A program made the position numbers and the translations under genes. The notes under the pieces were generated by a model. That model was not told the DNA's origin. It made no database searches and saw only the letters and a program-made list of their open reading frames with translations. DNA of 61,797 bases, the filler included, from Sanchytrium tribonematis (lineage: Eukaryota): the NCBI GenBank assembly GCA_018985235.1. It is 7 parts of 7 records of this genome, joined end to end, with 100 filler letters (N's around TTAATTAATTAA, not from the genome) between each part and the next. Parts side by side here need not be neighbours in the genome. Positions count along the whole stretch, not along the records: positions 1 to 8,796 come from JADGIG010000359.1; positions 8,897 to 17,686 come from JADGIG010000360.1; positions 17,787 to 26,549 come from JADGIG010000361.1; positions 26,650 to 35,398 come from JADGIG010000362.1; positions 35,499 to 44,205 come from JADGIG010000363.1; 2 more parts are not named here. One strand, written 5' to 3'. Shown here one piece after another: positions 933 through 43,059 of the stretch. Every line of letters starts with the position of its first letter. The stretch's first letter is position 1.

Positions 933-2124
933 TTATTGGATGAATCTATCAATTAATGATTGTCTTCGTTGTTGCCCGGCTGCTCTTCTTGTATTATCAG
1001 AAGTATATCTATGTATTTCTCCCATTTCCTGTCGTAATTGATCTAATTGATTATTGTAGAATTCTTCATTCGAATTGTATTCAAAACATGCCGTGTCAAT
1101 GTCTTGATAATCAATACCCAGATTATACAATACTAGTATACTATTCACTAGTTTTATATGACGTGCCCATGATATTTTGGATGGTCTTGCTAAATATCTG
1201 AATTTCTTTTTCAAAATTCCAAATGTTTTTTCAATTTTACACCTTGCCTTGCTCAGTTGAAAATTGAATTGCCCCCTCTCATATGGCAGATATGCCACTT
1301 GACTCTTATCAAATGTAGTCATAATGTGGGGTTCAATACCAAATCCAGAATCTCCCAAGACAAAATAAGAAGGGGGAAGTCTCTGAATCCATTTGTATAA
1401 ATTTGAATCTTTTACCTACATTAAATATATATACTATAGAACTATCTGCACAACAACCTGTGTGTCCTGTTGTAACACCTATTATACGCTGTCTATAATC
1501 ACAAACAATAACAATGAGATGTGAGTACCATCCTTTAAAATTGTAAATTGATCTTTCATCTACTCCATCTGGCTTGTCTAGTGGTATATGACAACCATCT
1601 ATAGCTGCAATAGCTCCTTCAAGTACTGTAGACTGACTCATTCCCTCCACCATTTCTGCCATGACATTTGGATCATTTGGCAATTTAATGGTTTCATTTT
1701 TAATTTGAAGAACAAGATCAACCATTTCCCAAACAATTTCATATGCAGTGGCAGTTCCAATGCCAAAAAAACAACCCAACAGACAGTAATCAATGTTATG
1801 TCCCACAAAACACAAATAAATTCCAAGTCTTGTTGAAAATTTAATTTTGGGTCTACCCCGTAAACTAATGGGCCAAAGTGGTCTCAATTTATCATGTAAT
1901 AATTGAAATGCGTCCGGTGAAAATCTAAATATCCTTTTAAACTCTACATGGCTAATGCTCTCTTCATTTATCATTTCAAATGGATCATGTAAGCGATCTC
2001 GTTGAAATATCTGCCTTGTAATATAAATATTGACATCTAAATTGCAAATCATGGCTTGGAATTGCATTATATCAAGTTGCTTCTTCATAGCGCAAAGCAG
2101 CATCAAAACCAATTTGGTATTCAT
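933..2124 (-). CDS. Harbinger (HARBI1-like, DDE_Tnp_4) transposase; exons 2124-1435 and 1415-933
   Basis: GAIAAIDGCHI, YNFKGWYS, DSS, LGDSGF, RCKIEKTFGILKKKFR motifs; the two ORFs join in frame after removing a 19-nt intron. Confidence 0.9.
1416..1434 (-). other. 19-nt spliceosomal intron GTATATATATTTAATGTAG
   Basis: Removal gives ADSSI|VKDSNLYKWIQRLPPSYFVLGDSGF. Confidence 0.85.
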
Positions 2125-2243
2125 AACAAGGAGATCTGGAACAGTATTTATTGAATGATTTGCCGATTGGGAACCATTGGTAATAAAATTTAGAGGGCCT
2201 CTAAATTTCGGGAACACTTCCCGATGAATTTCTGAACGCAACC

Positions 2244-2366
2244 TAAAGTGTTTATTGAGAGTATCGTAATTGATTTGTATCAATAATTGCAATTTGTTGG
2301 GCTTTCACCAATTGTATACTTGTCCTAAATATTTTCTCCTTCTACTTCAGATGTCACTGACTTGTA
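2244..2366. repeat. Orphan copy of the Tc1 element end, 123-bp direct repeat of 4672-4794
   Basis: Sequence appears identical to 4672-4794 and includes the TIR. Confidence 0.9.
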
Positions 2367-2644
2367 GTATGAAACCGAATCATGTCCGATCCGTCGAATT
2401 TGTAGCACAAAATCGCTTTTCAAAAGTCGTGATTGTGTTATATCTATAAAACTTGACTAAAAATGTGCTGGTAACACTCAAAACAGACCACCTTAACAAC
2501 TTAATTTTACAGTGAGCGACATTGAAACGTAGAAAAATTGACCAGGCTGCAAAATAAGATGGTGTTCATGGGATATATGCGCAAAGTATCTACTTTTTTT
2601 TTAATTATTTATTGAGATTTGAAGCTCCCGTAATGCCAGTTACT

Positions 2645-3407
2645 CTAGGTAACACTGGATGTGATCTTACAGACATCGTGTAGTTGATGTAAATCCATTA
2701 ACAACTCATATCTTTCAGTCGCTGCTTCTTTCCAGTATTTCAATCTAAAGACATCATCACGTGGTTTTTGCTTGCGGAGTCTCTTTGGTATCTTGCTTAT
2801 TTTCAATTCAAGAGGTGCAAATAGAGATTGGCTGTGAAAATGAGTCAGTAAATCGCTTGCATGATTTAATCCATTTGGATTCTCATCATCATGTCCTTTG
2901 ACATATTCAAATGTATATCTATTCACGCTTGAATACACTTGTGCTATCAAATCATTACAGTATACATGATAGAATGGTGTCGTATTTGCTTTGGTGTGCT
3001 CAAAAGCACTTATTGCGGATTCGCTGTCACAGAAAATGGTAATGGAATGGTTTAAAGTATTTGGTATCTGTTCAGCTACTTTGATACTACAGCACATGGC
3101 AGCTATCTCACTGCGAGTTGAATCATCAATAGCCAATTTTTCCAATTTGAATGATTTATTATAATAATCGGATTTGTTAATAATGATAATTCCGGCTGTT
3201 GCTTGTGTTGTGGGATGTTGGTGAAAACTTGCGTCACTATAAATATGTGTTGTATTGTCATCCATGGAACTTTGATAATTTTGCAAATGGATTCTCCATG
3301 AATCAGGGAGTGAAACAACACGCTGATTGTATGTTTTCGAGCACATTTGTGCGTCATTTTTTATGATTTTAGAGTGACATTGATAAATATGATGGTAGAT
3401 CAAAGTG
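2645..3407 (-). pseudogene. RNase H type I domain, probably the 3' end of a non-LTR retrotransposon
   Basis: IYSDAS, STRSEIAA, IFCDSESAI, YVKGH...NHASD catalytic motifs; A9 tract on the minus strand at 2594-2602; 5' side abuts the Tc1 TIR. Confidence 0.7.
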
Positions 3408-6139: not shown

Positions 6140-7079
6140 CTAATTTATTTATCCTTGGAGTCGGGTGTGCAGATCATTTCAACAGTAGGATTAAATTTTA
6201 GAATGGGTCCTGCTTGTAATGTAGCTGGTAGGGTTCGATTACATCAATCTCCGCAAAACTAGATGACTCAGAATTACATACTTAACGCTCGAGAAGTATC
6301 TTCCACATTGTTTGTGGGTGCGATATAATTAATTAATTGACACCCATATTCCTTCCCGACGATTACAGTAGCTTTGCGACACTCATTTTAGTTTCAGTGT
6401 CTTGAGTATTGTTTCTTTCCATTAAACTAGGTTTTAAAAATGATGCACACTTTTCTTTCTCTACCAATTCCAGTGATAAACTCTGGTTAACGTTGTTGTG
6501 AACACACTGGTGGGGACTGCGTAGACCTTGTAATCCTGACGTTACACTTCATTGAGATCAATCCAATCACAGTGCCTGGGGGTAATCATGTGGTTACACG
6601 ATGGCGACATAATAGCGGAAGCTTCCCAAAATCAATAACTTTAGTGATAACTTTGACAGCGGACGACTCCAGAACACAACAGACGTCCTAATGCTGGGGA
6701 ATCTGTTTTTTAAAAAAATCGTTTAAAATCTCAATTTGGGTTGATTAATAGGCGAAATATACAATATATTAGTAACGCTCTGCGGAAATTAACTGTACTT
6801 GCCGGGTAGAGAAGTGTATCTCTAGCTGATATAAATGGGTTATTACAACTCCGAACCAGCTGACACCCTTGTTTATTGATTTTAATTATTGGAAATTTCC
6901 ATTTTTAACTTCGTGAAATGTGTTTTAAGGGTGGTTTGATTTTTTTTGATAGAGGGTGAAACATTAAAATGGCAAGAACGAAGACTTCAATTATTGCCAA
7001 AATGATAAAAGCTTATTCATATCGACTTTCCCCAAATTTACCAGATAAAAATACAACAATAAAATACTTTTTTTGAAAC

Positions 7080-8796
7080 ATGTTAATTGATTTTTTCGAA
7101 AGACTTAATCGAGAGATAGAAAATAATCTAATATTTGGAGAGATGATAAGAGAAACAGTCCGTAATTTTGTCCATTATAATAGAAGTAACTTGAGAAGAA
7201 CGTCAGGATATATTAATATTTTAGATTATAACTTTCAAGAAGTGCAACGTCATTATTTTAATGAAGTTACTTGTCAACTATTTTATGAGTTAAATGAATC
7301 CCATTCTAATTTTCATTTTTATAGAACTGGGTTTTTAACTCACCAAGCATTTGAGAGATATAGTTCTTATTATAGATTTTTATCGCATGTTCCAGGTAAA
7401 GGTTCGGAAGTAGAACCTATTGATTACTTAAATTTTGACATTAATTGTTGTTTGTGTAGTAATTGTAATATTTTAAAAAAGAAAACTGCAATAAAGGTTA
7501 ATTATGAAACAATACCATTTACTTGGAAATGCAGGAATGGGTTCCAATACATTAAGATGAAAATCCAACCTTCAATTTAAACTCGGAACAATTACATGGT
7601 TTAACATATTTAAATAATCATCGTGATCAATATGCAAGATCAAACGGCGATGTATTTGTTATGCCACGAAACTTAAATCAAAGATTAGTAGGAACTCGGC
7701 ACGCCGAGCCTGCTGTTTTACCCTTTGGAGAACGCGTTACCGTAACCGAGGATGTAAATGTAGCAATGCGATCGATTTTTACAATTACATTTGATAATAT
7801 TGAAGTCAGAACATTTCCATATCTATTCTCGTATGGATACAATTTGCCCGCAAATATTTCGAAAGCAAAACTTATAAGAGAATTACTTTTTCATTCAGAT
7901 TCACGTTTTTGGTGTTGTTTCGATTGGTGTTTTTTCAAATATGATAAAATTGAATATGATCGAATTCAATTTGATGGAAATAGAGTTTCTCGTAATAGTG
8001 GCAATCATTTGAGTGCTGGTTAAGTTTTAAGTAGATCTAACTATACAGGGGAACAAATTTTCAACGACGACACAACTCGTAAATTGCCCGTTACAATAAG
8101 AAGTAGTAATACTTTTTTAGAAAAAATAAGGTGTGATCTCTTATGTTATATAGCGACATTTGGGACTCCGCATTTATTTATAACTTTAAATTGCAATGAA
8201 AATAATTATGGACAATTATATGCTTACATACAACAATATGGAAAAATTGATGAAAATTTAGACAGCATGTGGTATGTCCAAAATTCAGTTCTAAGTAATC
8301 ATTATTGTTACGAACGAATCAACAAAATGATCAATTTTATTACCATTAATGGATATTGTGGATATGCCATAAAATATCACTTTAGGAGATACGAGTTTCA
8401 ACAAAGGGGTACTGTTCATTGTCATTTATTACTATGGTTAAACGATACAAATGTATCCTCAGAAATGCTTTTTACAGATTTACTAAATTCTATTAGTGGT
8501 CATATTCCTGATTATAATGACGATCCAATGCTATTTTACGTTGTTAATCGCTATCAAAGACATTCCCATGGAGCTTATTGTACTTCAAATGGCACCTCAA
8601 GATATAGATTTAATTATCCCAAAATTGTTTCGTCAGAAAGTTTTTTTGATTTTCAAAACTTCAGATACGTTTTAAAAAGAAGTGCAGCAGATGTCATGAT
8701 TAAGTCTTACAATTCTAAAAATATGGGGTAGTAATATGGACATCAAAATTGTGACTTCCGAAATTGTTGCTAAATATATTACCAAATACTGCACCC
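7080..8796 (+). pseudogene. Helitron Rep (HUH) region, disrupted and truncated by the contig end
   Basis: TFPYLFSYG, FGTPHLFITL, EFQQRGTVHCHLLLW, RFNYPK, WGSNMDIK and YITKY motifs; in-frame TAA at 8021-8023 plus frameshifts. Confidence 0.88.
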
Positions 8797-8896: not shown

Positions 8897-9477
8897 CATT
8901 GGGATTATTCATTTCTCAATGCGCCAATGAAGCCTTTAAAAACACCGTCATGACATTTGAAACAACCCCAAGTTTCGTCGCATTAAAAAAAACAGATTCT
9001 CTAAAATCCATGGTGGATGAATTAAAGAATATTCCATGGGGTGGATCCACCAATTTCAATGCATGTTTTGATGTCATATTAGAAAGAGCATTAAATTTCC
9101 AATATCCCCAAAATCACTCTAAATATCCAAATCAAAAAGGATTAGCCAATGAACACATGCCTAGTAAAATTATTTGCATTAGTGACATGCAATTTAATGT
9201 TGCTGGCCAAATGACTAATTTAGAGCATATTATTGCCAAATATGATCAATCTGGCTATAAAATGCCTAAATTGGTATTTTGGAATGTGCGTGCCAATACA
9301 ATTGATTTCCCAGCTACTCAAAATGACAATGTGGCATTGATTAGTGGATTTAATACGAGTATTTTAAAGACCATTATGAAGGGAGAATTGGCTAATCCAT
9401 TTCAAGTGATGATGGATGCTATTTCTGATGAGAGATATAGCTCATTAAAGATTCATGAGGCATTTGAAGTGATTTAA
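8897..9477 (+). CDS. DUF2828-like vWA-domain protein, C-terminal part
   Basis: PWGGSTNF, ISDMQF, PKLVFWNVRA, VALISGF motifs; 5' truncated by the contig start. Confidence 0.8.
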
Positions 9478-9569
9478 AATGCAACCAATAAATATTGAGA
9501 ATTTATTCACTTTTTTAATGAAATTATCTCTGGCTCTAATCCAGCTAAGCTAAGATTCAATAAATGTAA

Positions 9570-10169
9570 TTTATTTTGGACATTCTTTGCCATATTCACT
9601 AGCACATTTAGTACCATATTTTTCTGTCTCGTCTGTTGATCTACAACTGCCTGCAACACCATATAAATTGCAATATAAATTTGGATCACATTTCAAAACA
9701 TCTGCTGTTTTTTTGGTGCAATCGATATTGACGAGTCCACAGTCTACTGTAAAGCTTGCGGCTGCACTTGTGTTGTTACAATATTTAGTAATTGAACTCT
9801 TTTGTTCATCAGATAATGGTTTTTTAGCTTGTCCAACTCCAGAAGGATTGGATGGTTTGCTTGAGCTGTCATCAGCTTTACAATTGCCAAATCTACCACC
9901 ATTGAATAATTTACAGTGGTGTTATTCTGGACATTTGGTTTGGTTTTTGAATTACCAGAATTGTCACATAAGAATTTCAAGCAACTGCCTTGTGCACTAA
10001 ACTCACGAATGCAATCTGGTTCTCTTAAAGGGGTAGATGCTTTTACACATTCATTTTTGGAACATGCGAAACCAGTTTTGCAGCGAAGTGTGCGTTTATC
10101 ATTAATGATTCCACATTTAATGGGTTTTGAGTCGCTAGCCATAATGGATAGAAGCAGAAGGTAAATCAT
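9570..10169 (-). pseudogene. Cys-rich secreted protein, frameshifted or disrupted
   Basis: MIYLLLLSIMA start with a Cys-rich frame; a second Cys-rich frame (HHCKLFNGGRFGNC...KECPK) continues after a shift near 9920-9945. Confidence 0.45.
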
Positions 10170-14595: not shown

Positions 14596-15768
14596 ATGCA
14601 GAAATGCAGAATATTATGTAAATTATCATGTATATTGATCATCACCATGTGCATTTTATCATCACAAATTATAGTTGAACCCTATTTGAACCCATTTCAT
14701 TATCCATTGACACTGTTTTATGCACCTGACAACCAATTTATCAAATCCAACTTTATAAATGCACCAGATATGTATAATCCAGCCATAATTCCACTTGATA
14801 TTGACAAATATTTGATTATATTCGCATTTGGTGGTCATTTTATGGATTCAATCAGTGGGAAATATTCATATCCAGTTCCAAATTATTGCATTTCGAGTGA
14901 TTTTACTTGTGATGCCGTGAAGCCACTTGCTTTACAAATTACAGATGCAGAAATGGAATTGACTAATTATTACTTATCCGGATTTGAAGACACTAGGGTA
15001 GAATATTACAATGGAGATCTCATTTTAATAATTTCATGCCCTTCTTTAAATTCGCATATTCAACGCACTACTTGCATTATTAGTGCATCTCAAGTCATTC
15101 CTGAGCTCAAACAATATATAAATACCACTGCCATCTTTCCCAATCTCATACGAATTGATAAAGTAATTGATAATTCTTGGATCAAAAATCAAATTCCCCT
15201 CTTTTTAAAGAATTTAGATTTCATATATTCACTAGATCCCTTTATCACATACACTCTTGACCCATCTGGAATGACTGGAAATACTCAAATCCAATTAAAT
15301 TACATAGATCCATGCATGAATGAAATTAAATCAAATTTCCCAAAAATGGATTATTTTCATTCTGGCAGCAACCAATTGCAATTAGTACTCTGTAATGAGG
15401 ATGAATGCACTCCAAATCATCGTAATACTGTGCTAGTGAGTCTGATACATCCAATTTACTACAGAACAAAAACACGCACAAAATTGAATTTTTACCAAAG
15501 ATTATTGATAGCCAGAAATATCACCTCTCCACACAATATTTTATTTTTTTCCAAACCTTTATTCATTAGACAAGGCTATTACGAAGATTTGATTTATTCT
15601 GAGACGATTGCGTATATTCATCCAAAACAGGAGCCTGATAAAAATATTGGATACTTAAATACGCCTGTAATTTATGGACATGGAATTGATATGCCTGGTC
15701 GACAATATCCCATGTATGCTCAATTTGATTTCCAAACTTATTTGATGGAATTAAAAGAAAGTTGTTAG
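14596..15768 (+). CDS. Type II membrane glycosyltransferase, BMT/GT91-like beta-propeller (tentative)
   Basis: N-terminal TM; GFEDTR (cf. GPEDPR) and WIKNQIPLF (cf. EKNWxPF). Confidence 0.5.
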   Translation: MQKCRILCKLSCILIITMCILSSQIIVEPYLNPFHYPLTLFYAPDNQFIKSNFINAPDMYNPAIIPLDIDKYLIIFAFGGHFMDSISGKYSYPVPNYCISSDFTCDAVKPLALQITDAEMELTNYYLSGFEDTRVEYYNGDLILIISCPSLNSHIQRTTCIISASQVIPELKQYINTTAIFPNLIRIDKVIDNSWIKNQIPLFLKNLDFIYSLDPFITYTLDPSGMTGNTQIQLNYIDPCMNEIKSNFPKMDYFHSGSNQLQLVLCNEDECTPNHRNTVLVSLIHPIYYRTKTRTKLNFYQRLLIARNITSPHNILFFSKPLFIRQGYYEDLIYSETIAYIHPKQEPDKNIGYLNTPVIYGHGIDMPGRQYPMYAQFDFQTYLMELKESC

Positions 15769-15786: not shown

Positions 15787-16967
15787 TTATTGCGACAATT
15801 TAAAGTCATTTTTGCTATTTTTAAATTGAAACAGCAATGGATATCTTGTGATATGCACTCTAGTTTCCTCGCTTACTTGAAATAATTCAGCCACTTGATT
15901 TTTAATGGAGATGAAACCAAATTTGAAATCATGGACGCAAGTTCTGTAAGCCAATGGGAGCCACTTCATATCACATTTACGATCTATTTTAGTGGATATA
16001 GGTTGTGTCTTGTTACTAGAATGTAATTGGATGGGTTCTTTTTGATATTTGACCATTTTAGCATCCAAACAAATCAAAATTTGATTTTCCATTTTAATTC
16101 GTTTACAATTGGATTCATTGCTTGTAAGTGGGACTAGTAGAATAGAAATATCTTTAGACGTGAATATAGTACGACTAAACCGTCCTTCTTCACTTAAATA
16201 CACTTTGGATGAAAATAAACGAATTAATTCACTTTTTGGATAAATCTTTAAAAATGCAGTTTGTAACTTGTGTGTATTCTTAAATAGTGTCATTTGACCT
16301 CTTAAATATAATAAATTTTGATTATCATTGGAATTGTGACGATATCTGCATTTAAATATGGAAATAATAAATTTGGATTTGACCAAATAATATCCACATC
16401 AGACCATCCCACATACTCAAATTGAGTCAAATAAGCTCTAAAAATGTAATTAAACATGGGTCGTAGTTCAGAGATTGCATAATTTTCATTATTAATGCGA
16501 TTTTCAATCAAATTTTCAATTTTAGAAAATTCCATTTTATCACATTTGTATAATTTGCATAATTTATGTGCTGCATACGTATGGAAGGATGATTTCAAGT
16601 AGATTTGATGGATATTCGGATAATCATTGTTGATTAATGTGCGATTATCTGTAGAAATGAAGTAGAATTGGACATTTGAATGATTGGCTGATTTGAGGAA
16701 ATGTTGGGTATATTTGGGTAAATCACCTTTAAATGGAATGATAATGGCTAATTTATGACACAAGTTGGTTGCATTCTCTGTATTATGGGATCTACTGGAT
16801 AAATGTGACATTTTCATCATTTTTATGTCACTAGATTGATTTAAATGTACTGAAAATAGCAAGATGACCACTAAAATAGTCACACCATAGATATATTTGG
16901 CGTATAGTCTGATATGATATCTGTAAATAGATAATTTGGAGTATTGTAAATATTTGTAATTTGTCAT
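15787..16967 (-). pseudogene. DUF6625-like DxD glycosyltransferase with a 1-nt frameshift near 16330
   Basis: TM anchor, ELRPMF, YVGWSDVDIIW, then LRGQMTLFKN in a shifted frame; no GT-AG intron fits. Confidence 0.55.
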
Positions 16968-25842: not shown

Positions 25843-26160
25843 TCATTTTTGACCCAAGGCTTCTAATAAATCTAATTTTGTAACTGTTAATAAATTTAGT
25901 AGCGTGTCAACCTTGAACTTTAATTCTTCATTTTCCCTTTGAAGAACATCCAATTTCTTTTTATCTATACCACTTCCTGGGATATTAGATTTATTATTTG
26001 TAGTTCCATTTACATTCCATACGCCATTTTCATAAACTAGTTCATTTCCTTGAAGCGTAAGGTGAATAGGATACTGGGTGTCTTCAGCATATGGAGATTT
26101 AGGTGCGCCTCCTTCGCTGAAATGCCTACTTCTTCTTTTTATAGAATCCATGGAATACAT
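25843..26160 (-). CDS. CBY1: Chibby-family basal-body protein
   Basis: LTLQGNELVYENGVW and coiled coil LQRENEELKFKVDTLLNLL match the Chibby signature. Confidence 0.8.
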   Translation of the reverse strand: MYSMDSIKRRSRHFSEGGAPKSPYAEDTQYPIHLTLQGNELVYENGVWNVNGTTNNKSNIPGSGIDKKKLDVLQRENEELKFKVDTLLNLLTVTKLDLLEALGQK

Positions 26161-26649: not shown

Positions 26650-27615
26650 CAATAAATGCTGCAATTCTCGTGCAAAATTCAAGTTCAAGCTGTGTTTAAT
26701 CAGAAACGATAAAGAAGGGTATTCAGAATAATCAAGTTGTACTTGATGGATGCACTTTTCAATGCACTTTGTATACTCCGTTTTAGTCTTTGGTGCGCTA
26801 TTTTCATTTTCAATTTTGGTAAATTCTCCATTAAATGCAATTGTGAATTCTCCAACAAACTCAGTATAATCAGATCGAGGGAAGTTGATGGACTTGAGTA
26901 AATAATAAAGCGGATCTTTAATTTCATCTTGATTTACAAAATGGTACGAATCATCAACAAAAGTCTCTAAAACACCTGAGAGAACTTCCTTGACAGTGCT
27001 ATTTGGCCCATAATAAAAGTAATACCTTAAAACAAAAGCTTGAGACCAATTAATAAACACAGGTTCTTTCCAGGGATTACCACTAGTAAGAGCTTGTAAA
27101 AAGGATGCCACATCATTCTTATTGGCAATAAAAATTTGCTGGTTATATTCTTGAACTTCAGTTGAAGCATTAAATGCACTTGAAATGGCAATCGCCAAAT
27201 GATAATTTTGATGGTCCAATAATGTTTGACAGCCTTCTTCGATCTTACCACAGCATATCAAATAAAGGCACCGATGATATGGGTCGTCTGTATCAATATT
27301 TAATAAATGGTTATAATCACAAAGGCACTCTACCAAATCGTGATGTTGAATCATTTTGTTATTCAAGTCTATATCCTTGACAATACTCAAAAGTCTCAAA
27401 AGATAGTGTGACTTCTGGTCGTATACACAATCATAAAGATTCTCAAGAGGGATATGCAATAATTTTGGTAATTCGCCCAATTTCAAAGATGGAATTAAAG
27501 GCATAAATGATTTTTGTAAATAGTGAGGCTCTATAAATGGTATTTCTTTGGTTAAAGCCGATATGCTTTCTACTTTCTTGACAGGTGTATCTAGCATTGG
27601 AGTTTGCAATCTCAT
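26650..27615 (-). CDS. NUP96: Nup96-like nucleoporin as a stand-alone ORF, 3' truncated
   Basis: GKIEEGC...NYHLAIAIS, NWSQAFVLRYYF, KDPLYYLLK resemble the Nup96 domain. Confidence 0.65.
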
Positions 27616-27793
27616 TTTATTTGTTTTCAGGAGAAAACGTCGATGAAATTAAAAGCTTGTTGGAGTTCCATGTAAATTAAATTTATTTAGATTAGAATCG
27701 GAATGCAAGTAAACAAATTTAACGCCTCAAATTAAAGTTAAACATTTAAATTAGATATTTGCCAATTTATGAAATCTCCTTGTTACTTTGCCG

Positions 27794-30775: not shown

Positions 30776-30865
30776 GTTTCAAGTTTGATGAGCGTGACCC
30801 GAGAATAAATTAGATTGCAAATGGCACAATCTAAATGATTATATGAATATTTTCAACTTTATTTA

Positions 30866-33367
30866 TTACAAATGATCTAACTGATAAACCCACACCCCAT
30901 TTTCGTAAGAAACATATCTTTGAATATTCAAATTTTTAAGTTTTAATTCATACTTTTTGTACAATTCATGCTCTGTGTCTCTGATTTCCTTTTTAGTTTG
31001 CCTATCTCTTGGCCAAATGCTTTCCATAGTTACAAGAATAGGCACATTAAGTCCAGAGCCTTCTTCAGGAGTGTAATCGTCTTCAGGATATACGATAATT
31101 TCTCTATCCTTAATTTGGATCAGCTCATTGAATATTTTCGTTAAAAGTTCAGATAAACGAAGACCTGAGTATTCATCTTCATATTTATCGCTTACTGGAT
31201 TCATCAAGTCTACAGGCTTTGTAAAATTGATCATTCCAACTCCTGGTACTCTAATATTTAAATTTGGAACCTTATAATTTGGAGCTTTGGCCATATTTTC
31301 TGCAATCTCTTGAATAGGAGGTGTGATTATCAAGTTCTCCGGTAACTTAATTTTTGGATCTTCAATTGGAAAAGAGGACTTTGGATGTGTAATTGGGCTT
31401 TCAGGTTCTACATTTTTCTTTGTAGATGCCATGGGTTTAGTAGGAGTCTGCATATCCACACTTTCTATCAACTTCAATTTTGATTTTGCTTCAGGAGTTA
31501 AATGCAAAGCTTTGGGGCTCGATTTGAACATGTCCATCGTAACATTCAAATTGTTAGATAATTTTGCATCTTCTGAGACTGAATGTGGATCTTGCATCCG
31601 TTTTTGAGGGCTAAAAATGACAGTAGATTTGTAGCGACTACTGACTTGTGGTTGTCTTTTGATGCTTGCTGGTAATCGTTCACTCTTCTTTTCTCTTCTG
31701 AGATTTGGAGACTGCTTTATTGGGGTATCTAATAAAGGACTATTCCCATATGGCATTTGGTCGACTCTGGCAACAAGTTTATTATCTGGAGTGACAGGAT
31801 TTTGTTGGTTTTGAGGTTGAAAAGAAGTCGGCTGACTTGGTTGCCCAAGACTAAAAGCTGGTTTTTGGGTGTTGAAGCCGCCAAATGATGGCTGCGTTGT
31901 TGGTACATTAAATGATGTAGTTGGCTGAGTGGTAGCAGTTGTGTTATTCGTTCCGAATTGTAGTTTAGGTGGTTGATTTGGAGTTGAAAATGTATTTGTA
32001 TTAGATTGTCCAAAGCTAGGTGTTGGTGTTCCAAATGTGGGCTTATTCAAAGAATTGTTAAAAGCGTTGGATTGAAATCCAGAGGTAGCTGCTGGTTGTG
32101 TTTGACCAAAAGTGGACGTTCCAGTTCCAAAGCTGGGTGCTGTAGTAGTTTGGCCAAAACCGGAAGTATTTCCAAGAGTCGTGGAGGGCTGGTTGAAAGA
32201 AGAGTTCGTTCCAAATCCCGATTGTTGAGGTTGTTGTCCAAATCCAGTTGTAGTATTAGAAGTCGCACCTTGACCAAATCCTGGAGTAGAAAAAGTGTTG
32301 GTTGCTGTTTGACCAAATGCAGGTTTTTGACCAAATGCAGAGGTTGTATTACTGGTTCCAAAACCAGTTGTAGTGTTGGTATTCGAAGTAGAACCAAAAC
32401 CACCAAAACTGGGTGCAGTGCTTTGAAATGTATTTGTATTGGTAGGAGCTCCAAATGTTGATGGTTGATTGAAAGAGCTTGTATTTGTTTGCCCAAAGCC
32501 CGTTGTTGTAGAAGGGTTTGTAAAACCACCAAAACCGGTGGCGGATGGACCTGATTTCTTATTTAATTGATAATCTTTGACTCTGAGTTCCTCCAAAGAG
32601 AAATTCTCATATTGCTTGTCTGCAGTGATAGTTTGATAATACCCATCGCTGGTAGAAGTGGGGTTCCAATTCGGCTTAGTGCCTTCATTTATACCCATTC
32701 CACCAGTATTGAACCCTCCAAACGAAGGTTGGGTATTTTGCCCCAGTGTTCCGCCAAAAGACGGCTTAGCAGCTCCGAACCCACCAAAACCACCGGTGTT
32801 AGCTTGGCCGAAGCCAGTATTTGATGTAGAACCAAAACCGGTAGTGTTAGTTTGACCAAATCCTGCAGTAGAGCTTTGGCCAAAACCGGTGGTAGTTGGC
32901 TGACCAAAGCCACTGGTGTTGTTTTGACCAAATCCAGAAGTGGTAGTCGAACCGAAGCCAGTGGTCGAAGGTTGGCCAAATCCACTTGTCGTCTGACCAA
33001 ATCCGGTATTAGAAGGTTGACCAAAAGTATTGTTTCCACCAAATCCTGTATTTTGCTGAGGTTGTCCAAAAGTAGATGTTGTAGACCCAAATCCGCCAGT
33101 TTGTGCAGGTTGCCCAAATGTGCTTGTGCCTCCAAAACCTGTCGTTGCAGGTCTACCAAATGCACTGTTCGTCGAGCCAAACCCTGAAGTTTGTGGCTGG
33201 CCAAATCCTCCTGGTTGCTGCTGAGTTTGTCCAAATGTACTGTTGCCAAAAGTAGATTGGCCAAAAGCTGACTGAGTTGGCCTTTGCTGTCCAAATCCTG
33301 TATTGTTAGACCCAAAAGTATTCGAAGCTGGTCTATTGTTGTTGTTATTAAATGAAAATGAACTCAT
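30866..33367 (-). CDS. NUP98: Nup98-like FG nucleoporin (FG repeats, GLEBS, autoprotease domain)
   Basis: Dense GFG/FG repeats, YQTITADKQYENFSLEELRVKDY, IVYPED...GSGLNVP...GVWVYQLDHL-stop. Confidence 0.93.
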   Translation of the reverse strand: MSSFSFNNNNNRPASNTFGSNNTGFGQQRPTQSAFGQSTFGNSTFGQTQQQPGGFGQPQTSGFGSTNSAFGRPATTGFGGTSTFGQPAQTGGFGSTTSTFGQPQQNTGFGGNNTFGQPSNTGFGQTTSGFGQPSTTGFGSTTTSGFGQNNTSGFGQPTTTGFGQSSTAGFGQTNTTGFGSTSNTGFGQANTGGFGGFGAAKPSFGGTLGQNTQPSFGGFNTGGMGINEGTKPNWNPTSTSDGYYQTITADKQYENFSLEELRVKDYQLNKKSGPSATGFGGFTNPSTTTGFGQTNTSSFNQPSTFGAPTNTNTFQSTAPSFGGFGSTSNTNTTTGFGTSNTTSAFGQKPAFGQTATNTFSTPGFGQGATSNTTTGFGQQPQQSGFGTNSSFNQPSTTLGNTSGFGQTTTAPSFGTGTSTFGQTQPAATSGFQSNAFNNSLNKPTFGTPTPSFGQSNTNTFSTPNQPPKLQFGTNNTTATTQPTTSFNVPTTQPSFGGFNTQKPAFSLGQPSQPTSFQPQNQQNPVTPDNKLVARVDQMPYGNSPLLDTPIKQSPNLRREKKSERLPASIKRQPQVSSRYKSTVIFSPQKRMQDPHSVSEDAKLSNNLNVTMDMFKSSPKALHLTPEAKSKLKLIESVDMQTPTKPMASTKKNVEPESPITHPKSSFPIEDPKIKLPENLIITPPIQEIAENMAKAPNYKVPNLNIRVPGVGMINFTKPVDLMNPVSDKYEDEYSGLRLSELLTKIFNELIQIKDREIIVYPEDDYTPEEGSGLNVPILVTMESIWPRDRQTKKEIRDTEHELYKKYELKLKNLNIQRYVSYENGVWVYQLDHL

Positions 33368-35498: not shown

Positions 35499-35990
35499 GG
35501 CTATTCTTAGGTACATTTATATAACATAGGTTTTCAAGGGCAAGATCCTAGTACAGATTTTAGAGGCATGGGTGAGCTCGCACTTGAGCAGTTGCACTTT
35601 TTTGTGACAATGCGGACTGAAGATGCCAAAACTATGCTGACTGCGTCTCATCATCCAATTTACTGGTTTAGTATGGCTTTGGTGTGCATTAATGTCTCTT
35701 CATTTGTCGTTGAACTACTTAATACCCGCAGACTACATCCTTATATGTATATCAGTTATTTGGAATTATGCAGACCACCTGGCAAAAACCGAAACTGTTT
35801 AAGTTATAAAGATCTTCTTCCGATAAAATATATTCATTTATTTTATTGCCAAATATGTATGGAATTTGTTGAGAGATGGCAATTAAATAATACCACAGTA
35901 ATTCAGTTTGAAATGTTTTTTAAAGAATTCAAGATCAAAATTGAACAAGAGTTGATACTGTCATATATGAAATATTTAATAAAGACTTGA
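35499..35990 (+). CDS. ELMO-domain (ELMOD) protein, C-terminal part
   Basis: After splicing: (W)LFLG|FQGQDPSTDFRGMGELAL; YWFSMALVCINVS. Confidence 0.88.
35511..35529 (+). other. 19-nt intron GTACATTTATATAACATAG
   Basis: Removal restores the WxxLGFQGxDPxTDFRG ELMO motif (phase 1); the upstream exon is only 12 nt before the contig edge. Confidence 0.8.
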
Positions 35991-35997
35991 ATTAAAT

Positions 35998-37737
35998 TTA
36001 TTGATGTTCATCCCCAGATGAATCATCCATATTGTTTATGCTTTGAGATCTAAAAATGGTATTCATTCCAACAGGAAATCCTCTTGGAACATAAAAATCT
36101 AAAACGATTATTTCTGAACGTTGATTTCTTGACAGCGCGACCACTAAATGCCTGTCAGTCAACTTTACCCTCCAAACATTCGTTACACCTGTAATAATAT
36201 CCCTGATGAATTCTCCAGTTTGAATATTGAACAATTTTACATGTCCATCGCATCCAACAACTAAAAAATGGGTATTGTGGGCCATACAGGTTACAGCAGA
36301 TAAATTAAGCTCTACTTGATGTAGAATAGGAAATGGAACATTCGTAGCTTGCGAATCACTTTGGCTCCAGGAATTGCCAAACATCGCATTTTGAACCGAA
36401 TGCCTATATATTGAATCTGGCAAATACCGATTATTTATCGGCGTTGCTTTAAACGGAGTTAGCCCATACATTCCATATACCTTTCTGGACTTGTTGCTTT
36501 GTGCCAGTTTTTCTTGAATAGCTAGAAAATCTCGTGGAAAAACTGTCACAGAGGAATCAGCGCTAGCGCTGACAACATATCTGTTTGATTTGTCAATAAT
36601 GCCTACCAATGATCTGTTATGATCAAGGGTGTAGAGGCATTGACCCGTTTTAATTTCCCACACACGAATAGAATTGTCTAAAGAGCCTGTCCAAACAAAT
36701 TTGTCGTCACAAACTACAGCGTAAACCTTGTCTTGATGTCCAACAAGCTCTTGGAGGCATTTTCCTTTATAGTCCCATATCCTTGCTGATCGATCGTAAC
36801 TGGCAGAGACAATATGCTTCGATGTACATGATAAGCTCCTCACAGAATCGTTATGCCCTTCCAATGTATATAAACAATGATAGTCATTGGATGATATCTG
36901 TGGTGATGTGCTCGGGGATGAAAAATGGTGCTGGTTGGGCATAGCAGAGGCCAAGTCACTTCGCCTGCGGGAAACATTGGTTCTAGAAACTGTAATGGCA
37001 TCCGGAGTGGACTCTGATGAACTTCCTTGCATGTCTTCCTCAGCCTCGTGAGAGTTTTGCAAATTTGATTTGCTCTCCTCAACAATTTTTGATAGATCCC
37101 ACATTTTGATATTTTTGTCTCTGCTTCCACTTACTAATATCCACTTGTAATCAACTATATTTACGCTAAGACATCGAATAGTTCCAGCGTGACCAGTCAA
37201 AACTGATAGATATTGTCCTTTGCTTAAATCTACTACATGTATATTTCTATCTGTGCTTCCTAAACATAATATGTTTTCAATTGCAGCTAGTGCCCAAATT
37301 CCACCGCCAAAGCGATTAAATTGATGCAAAAGCGAGTTTTTCTCCGTTACAGGATCCTTCAAAGAGCTCATTTTATAGACTTGTACGATAGGCTCGTCAA
37401 ACGTAGCTATGAGACCCTGAATTTCCACTTGCTCGTGAATCCATCGATGAACTAAAGTATTTGTTACGACCGCTGCCGGACAATTTAGCGAACTCGTGCT
37501 ATACTGACCATTACTGGTGGTATGATAAATGTAAAATAATTTTATATATTCTTCTTTATAATTAAGGATTGATGTAACATCGAAATCTCGTGCCAATAAT
37601 TCTTTCCAAATTCTACTATGGTTAAATATTAGGTTGAAGCTCTTACAAACCCCTGAGCAATTTAGAATATCATGTATAGTCAAATAACGCGATACATATA
37701 TAAGAGAATCAAAATTAAATTCTGTCATAAATTTCAA
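35998..37737 (-). CDS. F-box/WD40 protein (Cdc4/Fbw7-like)
   Basis: N-terminal F-box, multiple GH...WD repeats. Confidence 0.9.
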   Translation of the reverse strand: MKFMTEFNFDSLIYVSRYLTIHDILNCSGVCKSFNLIFNHSRIWKELLARDFDVTSILNYKEEYIKLFYIYHTTSNGQYSTSSLNCPAAVVTNTLVHRWIHEQVEIQGLIATFDEPIVQVYKMSSLKDPVTEKNSLLHQFNRFGGGIWALAAIENILCLGSTDRNIHVVDLSKGQYLSVLTGHAGTIRCLSVNIVDYKWILVSGSRDKNIKMWDLSKIVEESKSNLQNSHEAEEDMQGSSSESTPDAITVSRTNVSRRRSDLASAMPNQHHFSSPSTSPQISSNDYHCLYTLEGHNDSVRSLSCTSKHIVSASYDRSARIWDYKGKCLQELVGHQDKVYAVVCDDKFVWTGSLDNSIRVWEIKTGQCLYTLDHNRSLVGIIDKSNRYVVSASADSSVTVFPRDFLAIQEKLAQSNKSRKVYGMYGLTPFKATPINNRYLPDSIYRHSVQNAMFGNSWSQSDSQATNVPFPILHQVELNLSAVTCMAHNTHFLVVGCDGHVKLFNIQTGEFIRDIITGVTNVWRVKLTDRHLVVALSRNQRSEIIVLDFYVPRGFPVGMNTIFRSQSINNMDDSSGDEHQ

Positions 37738-37771
37738 AATAAAACAAGGGGCTGGTATATAGTACCGCCAT

Positions 37772-39277
37772 TTATTTTACTGACTGATCTATTTGCGCCA
37801 ACATGTACAATAATTTCTCTTGGTAACCTTCCGAAAGATGCGAGTAATGAGTAACTGCAAGATTTTTAATCTCGCTCAACTGGATGATGTCTTGAAAAGG
37901 GAATAAAAGCAAAGCACCTAAAGCAGATACAAAAACTTTGGAATTGTTACATTTTATGGCACTTATCAGGGTATATGTTAAGTCTAAAAGTACGACTTCG
38001 CTATTTTTGACGAAAGGGTATAGTTTTTCGATGCATAAACACGCATTCCACCGTAGCTGAAAGGGACCACTTAGGGCTGCTTTGTTAAATATTGAAACGA
38101 ATGAAATGACTTCATCGTGTCCAATTTCAGCGGGTTGCAGTAAATAAAATAATCGCAACCCTCCAAGCCGGTGTTTTTCGTTACTTTTACATATCTTGAG
38201 TGACAAATTTAGTAATCTACTCTTTGCTACTCCAAATGATATGTTGGAAATAAATTTTGGAGTAAATGCGGAAACACAGGTAGATGCTAACAATTTAAGC
38301 GCAAATCCTTTCTCGCTGTTAAATATGTTTTCTATTAAAGTAAATAAAGTAAGAGAGTCATTTACATCAAGCTGGTTTTGAGTGACCAATTTGTTTGCAA
38401 TTTTCCAACCTTGCTTAATAGGATGTAGCTCCATTTTCGATTGAGATTTGAAAGTGGACCGATCCAATCTAGACTTGGAACTCAATAGTTCGTGCATTAA
38501 ATCGATCTGATATTTCAGGCATAAATTAGTGTATAGCAAAATAGAGGAAATAATGAGCCTGTTTTCGAATAAAAGTGAAGCATTAGCTAAGCAATTTTCT
38601 GCTTCTACTTCCGACTTTGATACAAATAACGAATGTAAAAGTTTTGTCCAATTTCCAAGTATGGGAATGAATTTGAATTTGAGAATTGTTGGTCCCACAT
38701 AACAATCCATGTAATAAGGATTTTCTTCGATCGACCGGAAGATACGCCCTTCCGTACTCCGGGGTAGATTAATTTCTTTATGAGAAATCAAGACAATGAT
38801 TGCTATTTCATTTAATTTATCTACATGAGTTCTGGCAACTTCACGCAAATAATCAGCGTCACTTGCTATGTGAGTGAGATATTTCGTGGAGATTATAAGT
38901 TGAGATATATAAAAATAATAGTATTGATGATCAAGAAATGGAGCATGGCAAATTTTTCGAAATATATCCATCCGGAGTTCTGATTTTGATATATAAGATT
39001 TGCCTTTTCTACCATTTGTATCAATTAAATTCCATAAATTTGAATCCTGAACTATATATCCCATACATTTGTAGTGATCTGGCGTGTCAAAGTCGTATAT
39101 CTTTAAGCACAGCTGGTCAAAATAGTCTGCAAACCAATTCTGATTAAATTGAGATAACATTGATATAATTACCATGTGTTCAGAATCGAGAATGTATGTT
39201 GAAATAAGCGACTCGCAAGCCTTTATGTATTCTAGCTTTGTTAGAGTCCCTGTGTCAATTTTTGTAATTAAATCCAT
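37772..39277 (-). CDS. HEAT/ARM-repeat protein (HEATR6-like)
   Basis: QLRWNAC and NSKVFVSALGAL motifs; helical character. Confidence 0.55.
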   Translation of the reverse strand: MDLITKIDTGTLTKLEYIKACESLISTYILDSEHMVIISMLSQFNQNWFADYFDQLCLKIYDFDTPDHYKCMGYIVQDSNLWNLIDTNGRKGKSYISKSELRMDIFRKICHAPFLDHQYYYFYISQLIISTKYLTHIASDADYLREVARTHVDKLNEIAIIVLISHKEINLPRSTEGRIFRSIEENPYYMDCYVGPTILKFKFIPILGNWTKLLHSLFVSKSEVEAENCLANASLLFENRLIISSILLYTNLCLKYQIDLMHELLSSKSRLDRSTFKSQSKMELHPIKQGWKIANKLVTQNQLDVNDSLTLFTLIENIFNSEKGFALKLLASTCVSAFTPKFISNISFGVAKSRLLNLSLKICKSNEKHRLGGLRLFYLLQPAEIGHDEVISFVSIFNKAALSGPFQLRWNACLCIEKLYPFVKNSEVVLLDLTYTLISAIKCNNSKVFVSALGALLLFPFQDIIQLSEIKNLAVTHYSHLSEGYQEKLLYMLAQIDQSVK

Positions 39278-39298
39278 TTTTGAAAATAGTTGGAAACG

Positions 39299-40618
39299 AT
39301 GGAGAGATTTTTTTTGAAAAACAAGTTGCTAGCATCGAAAGCGCAGCTATCTAAAATACTAACCATATACAACCAAGAAAATATTATGAATTTTATTGAT
39401 TTGTATTACGACTTGGGAGGAGAATCGGGTCACTTAAATGATGCTTTGATAGACAAGATTATTTCTCACGAGTCAAACGATTTTAAATTAATTGATTTGT
39501 ACAAAGTTTCGAGTTTTAACAGTAATGCCACTCGAAAAATTCAGTGTTTTAAGAAATATTTTGCTCGAATGAGGGATTTAATTCATGAACAAGGATTTAA
39601 AACACAATCAATTCGATCCCTTCTAAGCCGACCAGGAATAGAAGCTGATATTTGCGGCATACTTTATAATGGTCCTGGAGACATGGCATTTATTGAAGAC
39701 GACACTGGAGAACTGCGCTTGATTCCTCCATCTAATGACACTCTTATCGGGCAAGGTATATATTACGACTCTGTATTTGTCTTGATGAAAGGCTCATATT
39801 CAAAAGACGAAAAGCAGTTTCTGGTAACTCATGTTGCACAGCCACCATTTATTGAAGAACTCGACATTTTGAAAGAGAGGGAGGTTGTCTCAAGATCTCT
39901 AGAATCATCATATTGCCTCTTTTTCAATGACGTATACCTCGACGATGAAGATGTTCAAAATGATTTTGTGTTTGCCTTGACAAAATACCATGAGAGAAAT
40001 ATTCGCATTATTTCGATAACCATTTCAAATTGTTTTCGGACAGATCAGGCGGACCAACAGCGATCGGCTGTGATTCATTTTGTTCGCAGACTCGGAACAG
40101 AGTTGCCCAGTCTTTTGAGAGATGTGCGCTTTATATTTGTACCTCCAAAAGACACTATAATTCCTACAGCGAGATACTCTGATTATATTTTTGGTCCTGT
40201 TGCTAATTCTTTTGACCATTTTTTTTTGGGATCAAATCCATTCTTATTAGATTGTTTTGGCAGATCAGTAAGCTTTTTCACAGGTGATTTTATGAGTCAA
40301 AGGAGTTTACTAAATATATCAAGTTCGGCGTCAAAAAGCTACCAAGCAGCGTTGACAATTGTATCGCAGCTGCGGGTAGTATGCTATAAAGCTGAGAATA
40401 TTCTGTATAGTGAAGAGCTATATTTTAAAAAGCTTCCATCAATTATAGTAACACCAAGTAGTGCAAAATGGAATGAATTTATATTTAAATGCAAATCACC
40501 TCAATTGAGCAGTACAATTGTGAATAATTGTGGATCTTTTGCTAGTGAGAAAACTTGGACAGCGTATCTTCCTTTTGAGCATCGTACAGAATGTTGTCAA
40601 ATTCCTAAAAAAAAGTAA
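39299..40618 (+). CDS. DPB2: DNA polymerase epsilon subunit B
   Basis: IEDDTGEL, GIYYDSVFVLMKG, QPPF, DVYLDD, FIFVP, SNP, LPSIIV. Confidence 0.8.
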   Translation: MERFFLKNKLLASKAQLSKILTIYNQENIMNFIDLYYDLGGESGHLNDALIDKIISHESNDFKLIDLYKVSSFNSNATRKIQCFKKYFARMRDLIHEQGFKTQSIRSLLSRPGIEADICGILYNGPGDMAFIEDDTGELRLIPPSNDTLIGQGIYYDSVFVLMKGSYSKDEKQFLVTHVAQPPFIEELDILKEREVVSRSLESSYCLFFNDVYLDDEDVQNDFVFALTKYHERNIRIISITISNCFRTDQADQQRSAVIHFVRRLGTELPSLLRDVRFIFVPPKDTIIPTARYSDYIFGPVANSFDHFFLGSNPFLLDCFGRSVSFFTGDFMSQRSLLNISSSASKSYQAALTIVSQLRVVCYKAENILYSEELYFKKLPSIIVTPSSAKWNEFIFKCKSPQLSSTIVNNCGSFASEKTWTAYLPFEHRTECCQIPKKK

Positions 40619-40620
40619 AT

Positions 40621-41574
40621 TTATTTGCTATCAAGAGTTTGCTTTAACATTTTTAATAAACCCTCCTTAGTTTTATTCCCACCGGTGAAACCACTTGCAT
40701 GGACGAACGTTCCGCCTGGCACACCTGAAGCTTTGTCTAATTCTGATTCTCTTAAACCTCGCCACTTTTCAGGAAGAGATAGCCTATTTTCGAAAGATCC
40801 TTCTTTAATCGAGACGCAAGTGACTCTCCATGTATTTTTATCTGGGTAAACACAGAATAAAGGGCGTTGTTTGATTTTTTTCGTCTTCAAAAGTTCTTCT
40901 TCTAATTCGTATACGTGTGACTTCCATGGCACATATTCATCTAATATCATAATTCCATCCTTCATTTCCAATAAACATTTTGAGATAACTTCACGACTAG
41001 GAAGCCACGATATCCCATATACTTCAATGGTTCTCAGCAAAATATCTTTCATCCAAGACATGGCCTTTGAAAACCTTTCATCTTGCAAGTCCTCAGGTTC
41101 CACATAAGTCCCATTCATTGATCCAATGATTGAAGAAATAGATGTATTATCCTTATATTTTGGCGTTTCGTTAGATGAAAATCGATCTACGCCATTGTCG
41201 ATTCCATCAAATGCTTCAATAAATGAGGAGTACATTTTCTGGAATATCTTCTCAGTTTTTGGTGAATCAGTTTTTAATACCTTCTCAATTAATTGTTTCC
41301 CATAATGCTTATAAACAAGACCAGCAGAAGACAATCTAGTAGTATATGCGCTGCTAAATGTATCTTGAAAAGATCTTTGATGATGGTCATATCTTTTGAT
41401 TTTGTGATCGTAGACACCACCAACATCAACCACATAATCACAATCCTTAAGAACTGATTCATCACGAGTCCTAATAATCTGAACTCCATTCATAATGACA
41501 TTGAGCATCGCACATGCCAAGACCTCATCTGCGTGAAATGTGCCACTATGTGTGCCAACTTTGATCATGGTCAT
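40621..41574 (-). CDS. MYG1: MYG1 exonuclease
   Basis: GTHSGTFHADE, VVDVGG, YDHHQ, LSSAGLVYKHYG, FVHASGFTGG. Confidence 0.97.
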   Translation of the reverse strand: MTMIKVGTHSGTFHADEVLACAMLNVIMNGVQIIRTRDESVLKDCDYVVDVGGVYDHKIKRYDHHQRSFQDTFSSAYTTRLSSAGLVYKHYGKQLIEKVLKTDSPKTEKIFQKMYSSFIEAFDGIDNGVDRFSSNETPKYKDNTSISSIIGSMNGTYVEPEDLQDERFSKAMSWMKDILLRTIEVYGISWLPSREVISKCLLEMKDGIMILDEYVPWKSHVYELEEELLKTKKIKQRPLFCVYPDKNTWRVTCVSIKEGSFENRLSLPEKWRGLRESELDKASGVPGGTFVHASGFTGGNKTKEGLLKMLKQTLDSK

Positions 41575-41693
41575 TTCACGGAGTAGCGGGGTTGATCATT
41601 GGTTCCAAACCATAAATCAGGTTCGCCATTGCCTCATTTGTTCTACGCGTAATTAGGTAGGAGGTTTCAAAACAACTCAAGTTCATGAATCAC

Positions 41694-43059
41694 TTAATTT
41701 ACTTGTCTACTTGGAAATGGTCTTTCCATTCCGATTTGGGGACCACTAGTATAATATAACTTTGGTCGATAGTCTGGATTCTCTCGCATGACATTGCTGT
41801 TACGGAACTTTTCAATCAAAGCATCAAGGCCTTGCTCGTCAGCGTATTTGATTGAACAGACTTTTACACTATTGAATCTTGGCCATCGCTTTCCATCTAA
41901 TGCCACGGTCAATCTGTAAACTGCTTCCAAGTTCACCAAATTAATGAATGCATATCCAACATTACAGTGGTTCTAAATGAATTAGGATTACTCTAAAGTC
42001 GATTCTTAAATACAAGAAGTCGAATTGTCCGTCGACATATCTTCTAATCAACTCCAACAGCTCACTATGGCTGTATCGATTTGGGATATTTCGAATCATC
42101 AATGTTGTTCGAACGTCATTTCCAATTCTTAAGTTGTGAAAGTCAATATCATGAGTATTGCGCATACGTCGTTGCCCGGGGGGTTGCAATTGAGGAACAG
42201 GTGGGACCGGAAAGAAGGTTTGACTGAGTGGCATCAAACTTTGATCGATTTCTCGGACTCTTCTACTTGTTGTTGCATATCCGAGACCAGTATCGAATTG
42301 ACGTGGAAATCCGGCTGTTTGTTGTCTCCACATGTTTGAGTTGACTACTGTGTCTGGAAGCTCAGTTCCAACGTTTAAACTACTCAACGTAGAACTCATA
42401 TCTTCTTCAAAGGTACTACTTCTTGGTGAAAACATTCCAGATGAGTTGGATGGAGAGAGAGGTGGATGTCGAGGTGCTTCATTCTCCACCATTGCATTAG
42501 TCATGTGTAACTCTCCTGCATCTCTGATTGTCACCTTCAAGTCATGATCCTCATACATTTTCGTTAAACAGGCTAATGCTCTCATTTTGCCGGTAATGCA
42601 GAAAAAGGTCACTTTCAAGACTGATTGAGTCAACCACATGGCATTTTTGACTTCTCCGCAAGTACCATGCAAGTTGGTAATAATGCTTCGATCTAAAGTT
42701 TCAAAAGTCTTGCCTTGTAAGTATTGAACTAAAATGGTGGAGCTCAATCGAACATACAACTCATTGTCTTGAAATCGTCTTACAATTTCATGCAAAGACG
42801 CAAAACGTGCCACCACTGTTTGATGTTGCAATCCATTCAACACGCTCATTTGGCGAACGCAAGGTAATGCTTTCACAGCATCTCGACAATCTAAATAGCA
42901 CAAGACATAGTAATGGCGGTTTAAAAAAGAATAGTTGACATAGGCAATAGCTCCAAACAATTGAAACAAGTCTTGATGTTTCTCTTCAACAAGTATTACA
43001 TTCTCAACCAAAATGCAATGCATATTTTCAGAAGAATAAGTTAAGCTTTGTTGTTGCAT
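41694..43059 (-). CDS. mei2: Mei2-like RNA-binding protein; exons 43059-41992 and 41972-41694
   Basis: DVRTTLMIRNIPNRY, FDFLYLRIDFR|NHCNVGYAFINL, YADEQGLDALIEKFRNSNVM. Confidence 0.92.
41973..41991 (-). other. 19-nt intron GTAATCCTAATTCATTTAG
   Basis: Removal restores the Mei2 RRM3 motif IDFxNxCNVGYAFIN. Confidence 0.95.

Follow-up and report, generated by a model that had tools for sequence, protein, structure and literature searches.

Putative spliceosomal introns of 19 nucleotides, with a predicted branch site close to the 3' end, in a sanchytrid fungus

Six 19-nt inserts in protein-coding genes

The stretch of DNA considered here (hereafter the window; 61.8 kb in total) comprises seven contigs of ~8.8 kb each, joined by N-linkers, with a GC content of 34%. 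Six of its genes, spread over three of the seven contigs, are each interrupted by an insert of exactly 19 nucleotides (nt) that reads GTA...TAG on the coding strand (the minus strand in five genes, the plus strand in ELMOD), and these inserts are very probably spliceosomal introns. All six, first reported in an initial annotation of this DNA, are present; their GC content is 18% overall, and in the five complete genes they occupy the 3' half and not a position beside the start codon. The putative introns and their host genes are as follows:

1416-1434, minus strand: intron of a Harbinger-type DDE transposase gene, phase 0; exons 2124-1435 and 1415-933; spliced product of 390 amino acids (aa).
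19207-19225, minus strand: intron of a three-finger C2H2 gene, phase 0, within the second finger; exons 19477-19226 and 19206-18808; 216 aa; if unspliced, an in-frame stop is met at the third intron triplet.
20432-20450, minus strand: intron of Dbf4, phase 0, within zf-DBF; exons 21521-20451 and 20431-20240; 420 aa.
22181-22199, minus strand: intron of SDH2, phase 0, directly before the last Fe-S cysteine pair; exons 22901-22200 and 22180-22100; 260 aa; four relatives are interrupted at the same site.
35511-35529, plus strand: probable intron of ELMOD, phase 1; the gene is cut by the contig start, leaving 12 nt of upstream exon; downstream exon 35530-35990.
41973-41991, minus strand: intron of Mei2, phase 0, within RRM3; exons 43059-41992 and 41972-41694; 448 aa; the site is common to two sanchytrid-like relatives and to distant eukaryotes.

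The name "PacC-like" for the zinc-finger gene is solely a label of the initial annotation. The transposase gene (933-2124, minus strand) is intact after splicing (390 aa) and thus represents a mobile element with a host-sized intron; a search with its first exon recovered only the query itself and no close copy.

Removal of the insert restores the conserved frame in five of the six genes, as judged by continuity of a domain profile or hidden Markov model (HMM). For example, the Pfam family RRM_2 aligns over positions 1-40 before and 41-97 after the insert in Mei2; DDE_Tnp_4 aligns over 1-58 and 61-158 in the transposase, with two residues between; zf-DBF aligns over 2-16, plus two residues, and then 19-44 in Dbf4; and the zinc-finger gene without its insert yields C-x4-C-x12-H-x3-H. 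HMMs derived from homologues that lack the interruption were used to score splice variants of SDH2 and Mei2. Removal of exactly the 19 nt scored best in both genes, among 75 variants for SDH2 (439.0 bits, with the next at 419.3 and the unspliced form at 392.0) and among 57 for Mei2 (219.8 bits, followed by 167.4 and, unspliced, 61.5). Because only 304 of the 122,142 19-mers in the window have GT...AG ends, the probability that all five homology-fixed inserts would carry them by chance is ~1e-13, or 3e-10 with five registers allowed for each. The earlier claim that removal restores a conserved motif in every gene thus holds for five, and is weaker for ELMOD, whose insert we regard as only probable because just 12 nt of upstream exon remain and because the unspliced frame, though preceded by a stop, also fits the profile from position 50. 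A solved-structure search with ELMOD gave no match. Contigs from one DNA run (X1) match 35499-44205 with the ELMOD and Mei2 inserts unchanged; this run may be the window's own source.

With respect to the organism, the GC content of the window is near the 34.6-36.3% published for sanchytrids, whose genomes measure 10.5-11.2 Mb, whose hosts are algae and whose sister group is the Blastocladiomycota (PMC8371127; here and below, statements from the literature draw on the accessible portions of the cited texts). The four best SDH2 matches, among them Amoeboradix gromovi (EukProt; P0002) at 82%, are 79-83% identical to the window protein, and the following ones are 63-68% identical. In a single-gene tree built from 33 members of a set of 121 SDH2-like proteins, the window SDH2 and these four relatives form one clade with support of 100/99 on a long branch. 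As far as this one gene can tell, the source organism is a member of the Sanchytriomycota and a relative of Amoeboradix; the tree and the identity values both agree with the initial annotation, which had proposed a fungal-type lineage with sanchytrids among the candidates.

Anatomy of the putative introns and their counterparts in relatives

Within the six introns, a T at position 12 (-8) and an A at position 14 (-6) are invariant, a combination that arose in 0.054% of 200,000 within-intron shuffles (P 0.00054), and a pyrimidine occupies -5 in every case. The branch-site consensus is yUnAy, which these three positions fit near the 3' end, so that the A at -6 is a predicted branch nucleotide. 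The GT...AG ends of U2-type introns are present in all six. U12-type introns have an extended 5' site, RTATCCTT, and a TCCTTAAC-type branch site; neither occurs in any of the six, and a U12-type assignment was rejected. An Rfam search gave no match in the window.

The SDH2 relatives extend this picture beyond the window. Among 120 proteins with a CHTI[ML] motif, 115 go straight on with NC. The remaining five, in which this sequence is interrupted, are the product of the window and those of its four closest relatives; the C-terminal tails of the relatives' proteins are, judging from their sequences, intron read-through. An intron length can be read from such a tail as the one that allows it to encode GT...AG followed, in a different frame, by the conserved exon. 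The lengths so obtained for SDH2 are 19 nt (A. gromovi P0002), 19 nt (P0003), 20 nt (P0004) and 22 nt (P0001), and the Mei2 tail of the relative P0123 gives 19 nt. Each tail fits exactly one length; per 500 shuffled tails, those fitting any length numbered 0 for P0001, 2 for P0002, 1 for P0003, 0 for P0004 and 15 for P0123. In P0135, another Mei2 relative, the interruption falls at the same position and the tail ends after four residues, too short for a length to be read. In four of the five relatives' introns, that of 22 nt included, the tail leaves no alternative to an A at -6, and in the fifth it permits one. A pattern spanning the SDH2 intron had 0 matches in metagenome, genome and viral contigs, a search of genome contigs with P0123 found nothing, and a scan for Mei2 exon 2 returned 14 loci, none of them sanchytrid-like.

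These lengths bear directly on the best-surviving rival explanation, a true 19-nt ruler in which a fixed total distance from the 5' site makes every intron 19 nt long. The length is uniform in 6/6 introns across the 61.8 kb and recurs in three of the relatives' five, and near-single lengths are on record for mikrocytids (217 of 224 introns at 16 nt) and Stentor. Nevertheless, since P0004 and P0001 have orthologous SDH2 introns of 20 and 22 nt, respectively, and an A at -6 is still forced in the longer of the two, the class appears narrow and lineage-wide and not fixed at 19 nt. The "fixed length" of the initial annotation must be given up in this form: the lineage, on the evidence of the translated tails, tolerates at least 19-22 nt, and the constant is the 3' geometry with its A at -6. 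We therefore consider a ruler unlikely, and a single length specific to one species possible.

The Mei2 site provides an indication of age. A 29-nt intron occupies it in the fungus-like contigs L003 and L004 (L003 9972-10000), and a 20-nt intron in the ciliate-like contig L010 (1865-1884), whose Mei2 frame holds in-frame TAA, TAG and TGA; the affinities of these contigs were assigned from motif type and in-frame stops. In a set of 150 Mei2-like hits, 112 are uninterrupted at this site; 15, comprising the window product, two relatives and 12 further hits, are broken there and continue with a tail that begins in Val; another 14 are unclassified and 9 lack the anchor. Because the site is interrupted in distant eukaryotes, a shrunken ancestral intron fits and a new insertion does not; the sequence comparison points to shrunken ancestral introns and, for Mei2, to an old eukaryotic intron position.

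Other lengths, proposed mechanism and competing explanations

No homology-supported intron of any other length was found in the window, in line with the initial annotation; stop-free introns of length 3n would escape these tests, and those of 18 or 21 nt are hard to see because the open reading frame (ORF) stays unbroken. A motif scan of 3n lengths gave one in-sense 18-nt candidate (45001-45018) and 0 in-sense 21-nt candidates. An ORF-joining scan for AT-rich GT...AG segments of 12-45 nt yielded 29 candidates, seven of them 19 nt long and at most three at any other length. Plain GTA...TAG spacings barely favour 19 nt (29 at 19, 28 at 20 and 29 at 24 nt), and a rescan with the motif, which is circular, returned nine at 19 nt vs a mean of 0.9, or three vs at most four at other lengths once the six are subtracted. 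A gene finder based on a codon model, with equal prior weight on all intron lengths of 10-150 nt, chose 19 nt for Dbf4 and Mei2 and added the Harbinger intron at a laxer penalty; its other introns all differ in length, and the junctions viewed are frameshifts or deletions in degenerate genes. Intron density is low, at six per 48.8 kb of coding sequence in 55 listed genes (0.12 per kb); for comparison, the published density for Allomyces is 1.30 per kb (PMC8476143), and Blastocladiella has a total of 19,375 introns over 10,031 genes (PMC9730499).

Several other candidates were rejected as introns. The 20-nt segment 55419-55438 ends in AAG and lies in a degenerate DUF7869 element; the Helitron junctions are a frameshift or deletion in a degenerate gene; the kinase break near 57120 is a deletion; the breaks in 9571-10142 and 15787-16967 are single frameshifts; and the 39-nt stretch 30831-30869 is unneeded, the Nup98 domain ending there. 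A further four putative introns from the gene finder, 9469-9549, 9566-9602 and 40593-40670 (lax penalty) and 49896-50006, extend or fuse separate ORFs. Additionally, three noncoding 19-mers match GTA...TNAYNTAG (27672-27690, plus strand; 56381-56399, minus strand; 6259-6277, minus strand), a number not above background; the first, 104 nt upstream of malate synthase, might represent an intron in the 5' untranslated region of that gene.

For the inserts themselves, we favor a reading that we hold to be highly probable as a whole, namely that they are U2-type introns shrunk to the spliceable minimum, with the predicted branch A at -6. The inserts would likely be ordinary U2-type introns reduced to the smallest size that this fungus can splice, in which a GUA 5' site, a YUNAY-like branch site at positions 11-15 and a UAG acceptor are nearly contiguous. 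With the invariant A at -6 as the predicted branch point, the lariat loop would measure 14 nt, there would be no pyrimidine tract, and the acceptor would be set by a fixed distance from the branch A; only the 5' part would differ between species, by a few bases. Length would be kept within a narrow band by deletion bias from above and a steric floor from below, with no dedicated 19-nt ruler, as in the model of steric floor and deletion bias proposed for mikrocytids (PMC10245619). Most introns would have been lost, the survivors including at least one ancient position. More speculatively, an AG so near the branch A could render Slu7 and Prp18 dispensable, and both have perhaps been lost.

The splicing machinery was surveyed in the eggNOG table for A. 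gromovi, which covers about half of the proteome with genes called without introns (PMC8371127 supplement). The table contains Prp8, SF3B1, U2AF35, U2AF65, BBP, SNRNP40, Snu13, U1-70K and Dbr1, together with identifiers for Prp22, Cwc25, Isy1, Prp16 and Prp17. For Slu7, Prp18, Yju2, U1C and SF3B14, the look-up relied on identifiers that we take to be theirs. None of these five had a hit in this table of about half the proteome. The "modified spliceosome" of the initial annotation is accordingly unproven, A. gromovi keeping a core that includes Prp8, SF3B1, U2AF, BBP and Dbr1. In yeast, Slu7, Prp18 and Prp22 are dispensable for the second step at distances below 7 nt (PMC3392075), and C. merolae is without Slu7 and Prp18 despite long branch-to-AG distances (PMC10158995). 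Given this case, the half-proteome coverage and the intron-blind calls, the absence of Slu7 and Prp18 is a lead only.

Several points weigh against the reading of shrunken introns or narrow its reach. The evidence consists of DNA and protein sequence: six introns from one window, and five lengths deduced for relatives, four of which concern one and the same intron. The placement depends on a single gene, SDH2, whose tree leaves the clade unjoined to blastoclads. Because the relatives' lengths come from translated tails and not from DNA, an indel in an assembly could mimic 20 or 22 nt, and in these relatives a T at -8 is allowed but never forced. The gene finder recovered 19 nt for three of the six, missed SDH2 and ELMOD and assigned 67 nt in the zinc-finger gene. 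Both U2AF subunits are annotated in A. gromovi, yet the introns have no pyrimidine tract, and loss of Slu7 and Prp18 need not follow from short introns because C. merolae is without both. With these points in mind, a genome-wide 19-22-nt class that has a -6 branch A as in Stentor and is the shortest in fungi, with no factor loss implied, strikes us as reasonably likely; the fuller claim of the shortest spliceosomal introns of any fungus, 19-22 nt genome-wide with a -6 branch A, and of Slu7 and Prp18 lost through this proximity, is doubtful.

A second rival holds that the inserts are kept in the mRNA, either bypassed in translation by a +1 frameshift or hop or spliced only rarely in the manner of microsporidia. 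It draws on the length of 19, which is 3n+1, on upstream frames that run stop-free through the insert in 5/6 genes, and on the short introns of Encephalitozoon cuniculi, which are spliced at <20% on average (PMC6349667). Retention would, however, place about six extra residues in an Fe-S motif, zinc finger or RRM, against the continuity of the profiles; the 20-nt case would require another frame; and neither the GT/AG ends nor the -6 A has a role in frameshifting. We judge this very unlikely; low-efficiency splicing, which may occur, is a variant of the best explanation.

Introners are sequence-similar copies at lineage-specific new positions, and a recent burst of such mobile elements from one family would account for the uniform length and for the TAGGT repeat on both boundaries of the ELMOD insert. 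The six interiors, however, are dissimilar, having just two invariant columns in common; the Mei2 site is common to distant eukaryotes, being shared by fungus-like and ciliate-like contigs; and the SDH2 site is older than a clade at ~80% protein identity. We rejected this explanation as exceedingly improbable. Finally, frameshift mutations or assembly errors in dead genes can be set aside almost entirely: truly broken genes (frameshifts, deletions) do exist in the window, one host is a transposase and the only DNA run with the inserts may be the source, but chance would place GT...AG at five fixed sites with a probability of only 1e-13 to 3e-10, the inserts of four relatives at the SDH2 site agree in their ends and differ in sequence, introns also occupy the Mei2 position in distant eukaryotes, and the genuinely broken genes hold no fitting GT...AG insert.

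Other features, annotation and comparison with known tiny introns

Beyond the introns, the window holds several features of separate interest. The usual Nup98-Nup96 precursor looks to be split into two genes, and the Chibby-family gene, whose product belongs to a family of basal-body proteins, is of interest with regard to the long sanchytrid kinetosome:

7080-8731, 54645-56224, 56583-58099, 15787-16967, 9571-10142 and 44364-46869: broken genes without fitting intron ends; the types represented are Helitron, DUF7869 element, kinase-Sel1, DUF6625, a secreted-looking protein and a run of unknown ORFs.
30866-33367, minus strand: Nup98, which extends no further than its autopeptidase domain (PF04096, 5-142 of 148).
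26650-27615, minus strand: Nup96-like ORF, ~3.2 kb downstream of Nup98 with two genes between.
25843-26160, minus strand: Chibby-family gene (PF14645).
14647-15768 and 17162-17686, plus strand: near-duplicate ORFs on one contig, with long identical stretches and no Pfam family.

Introns of this size have consequences for gene models. The published sanchytrid proteomes were derived from genomic contigs with TransDecoder, without an intron model (PMC8371127). The initial annotation had anticipated that gene calling of this kind would go astray, and an exact look-up of five of the six genes indeed found truncated or read-through products in EukProt-sourced records: SDH2, Mei2, Dbf4 and Harbinger are read through and ELMOD is represented by its second exon only. 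The A. gromovi SDH2 in EukProt is likewise truncated. Gene-loss and domain inventories of the Sanchytriomycota may consequently need revisiting.

No description of sanchytrid introns was found in the open literature, subscription journals and genome portals lying beyond the reach of the search, and the accessible portions of two sanchytrid papers use the word "intron" only within a reference title. The 19-nt introns of sanchytrids are thus apparently unreported and the shortest in fungi. Their significance lies in the lower limit of intron size, a question for which the existing answers come from ciliates, nucleomorphs and mikrocytids, none of them close to yeast. A fungus with the branch-to-AG spacing of Stentor and most of the spliceosome would permit residue-level comparison with yeast structures, and the distance rule for Slu7 and Prp18 would become testable through natural gene loss; if true, factor loss included, the sanchytrids would be a natural experiment, within the fungi, on how small a spliceable intron can be.

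Tiny uniform introns as such are an already known kind, and the closest likeness is to the 15-16-nt introns of Stentor coeruleus, which share the GUA start, AG end, U-rich interior and (predicted here) branch A at -6, at nucleotide 10 in introns of 15 nt and 11 in those of 16 nt, and occur with a largely complete spliceosome (PMC9505925), many proteins of which are also annotated in the relative A. gromovi. The sanchytrid introns differ from those of this ciliate in their fungal host, in their length (19 nt here and 19-22 nt among relatives, outside the heterotrich range of 15-16 nt) and in their predicted loop of 14-17 nt vs 10-11 nt (PMC9505925); moreover, the tiny introns of heterotrichs are mostly of 3n length (PMC13685798), and none of the lengths seen here is a multiple of three. 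Sanchytrid introns hence work like the heterotrich type and are not members of it.

Chlorarachniophyte nucleomorphs (18-21 nt) and mikrocytids (16-17 nt) likewise keep their introns within a narrow size range at the minimum, and their genomes are reduced or those of parasites (PMC10245619). The nucleomorph is a relic nucleus with >800 introns in ~300 genes (PMC10245619), in contrast to a main fungal nucleus with ~0.12 introns per kb, and the rhizarian mikrocytids combine 17-19 spliceosomal proteins with a conserved intron sequence (PMC10245619), unlike the degenerate interiors found here and the many spliceosomal proteins of the relative. The origin apart from ciliates and nucleomorphs put forward in the initial annotation agrees with a host that is a sanchytrid fungus. 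Among parasitic Holomycota, very short GT-AG introns are also found in E. cuniculi (~25 nt) and Rozella allomycis (~30 nt), both exceeding 19 nt (PMC6349667); a further difference is the position of the present introns in the 3' half of the five complete genes. Because sanchytrids are sister to Blastocladiomycota, their shortening would be independent of that in microsporidia and Rozella. Microsporidia are the only fungal exception named in the accessible text of a study of myxobolids and dicyemids (PMC13644364), parasites that kept ancestral intron positions during shrinkage to medians as low as 22 bp; these introns resemble those described here in that history and differ in being longer and in belonging to animals.

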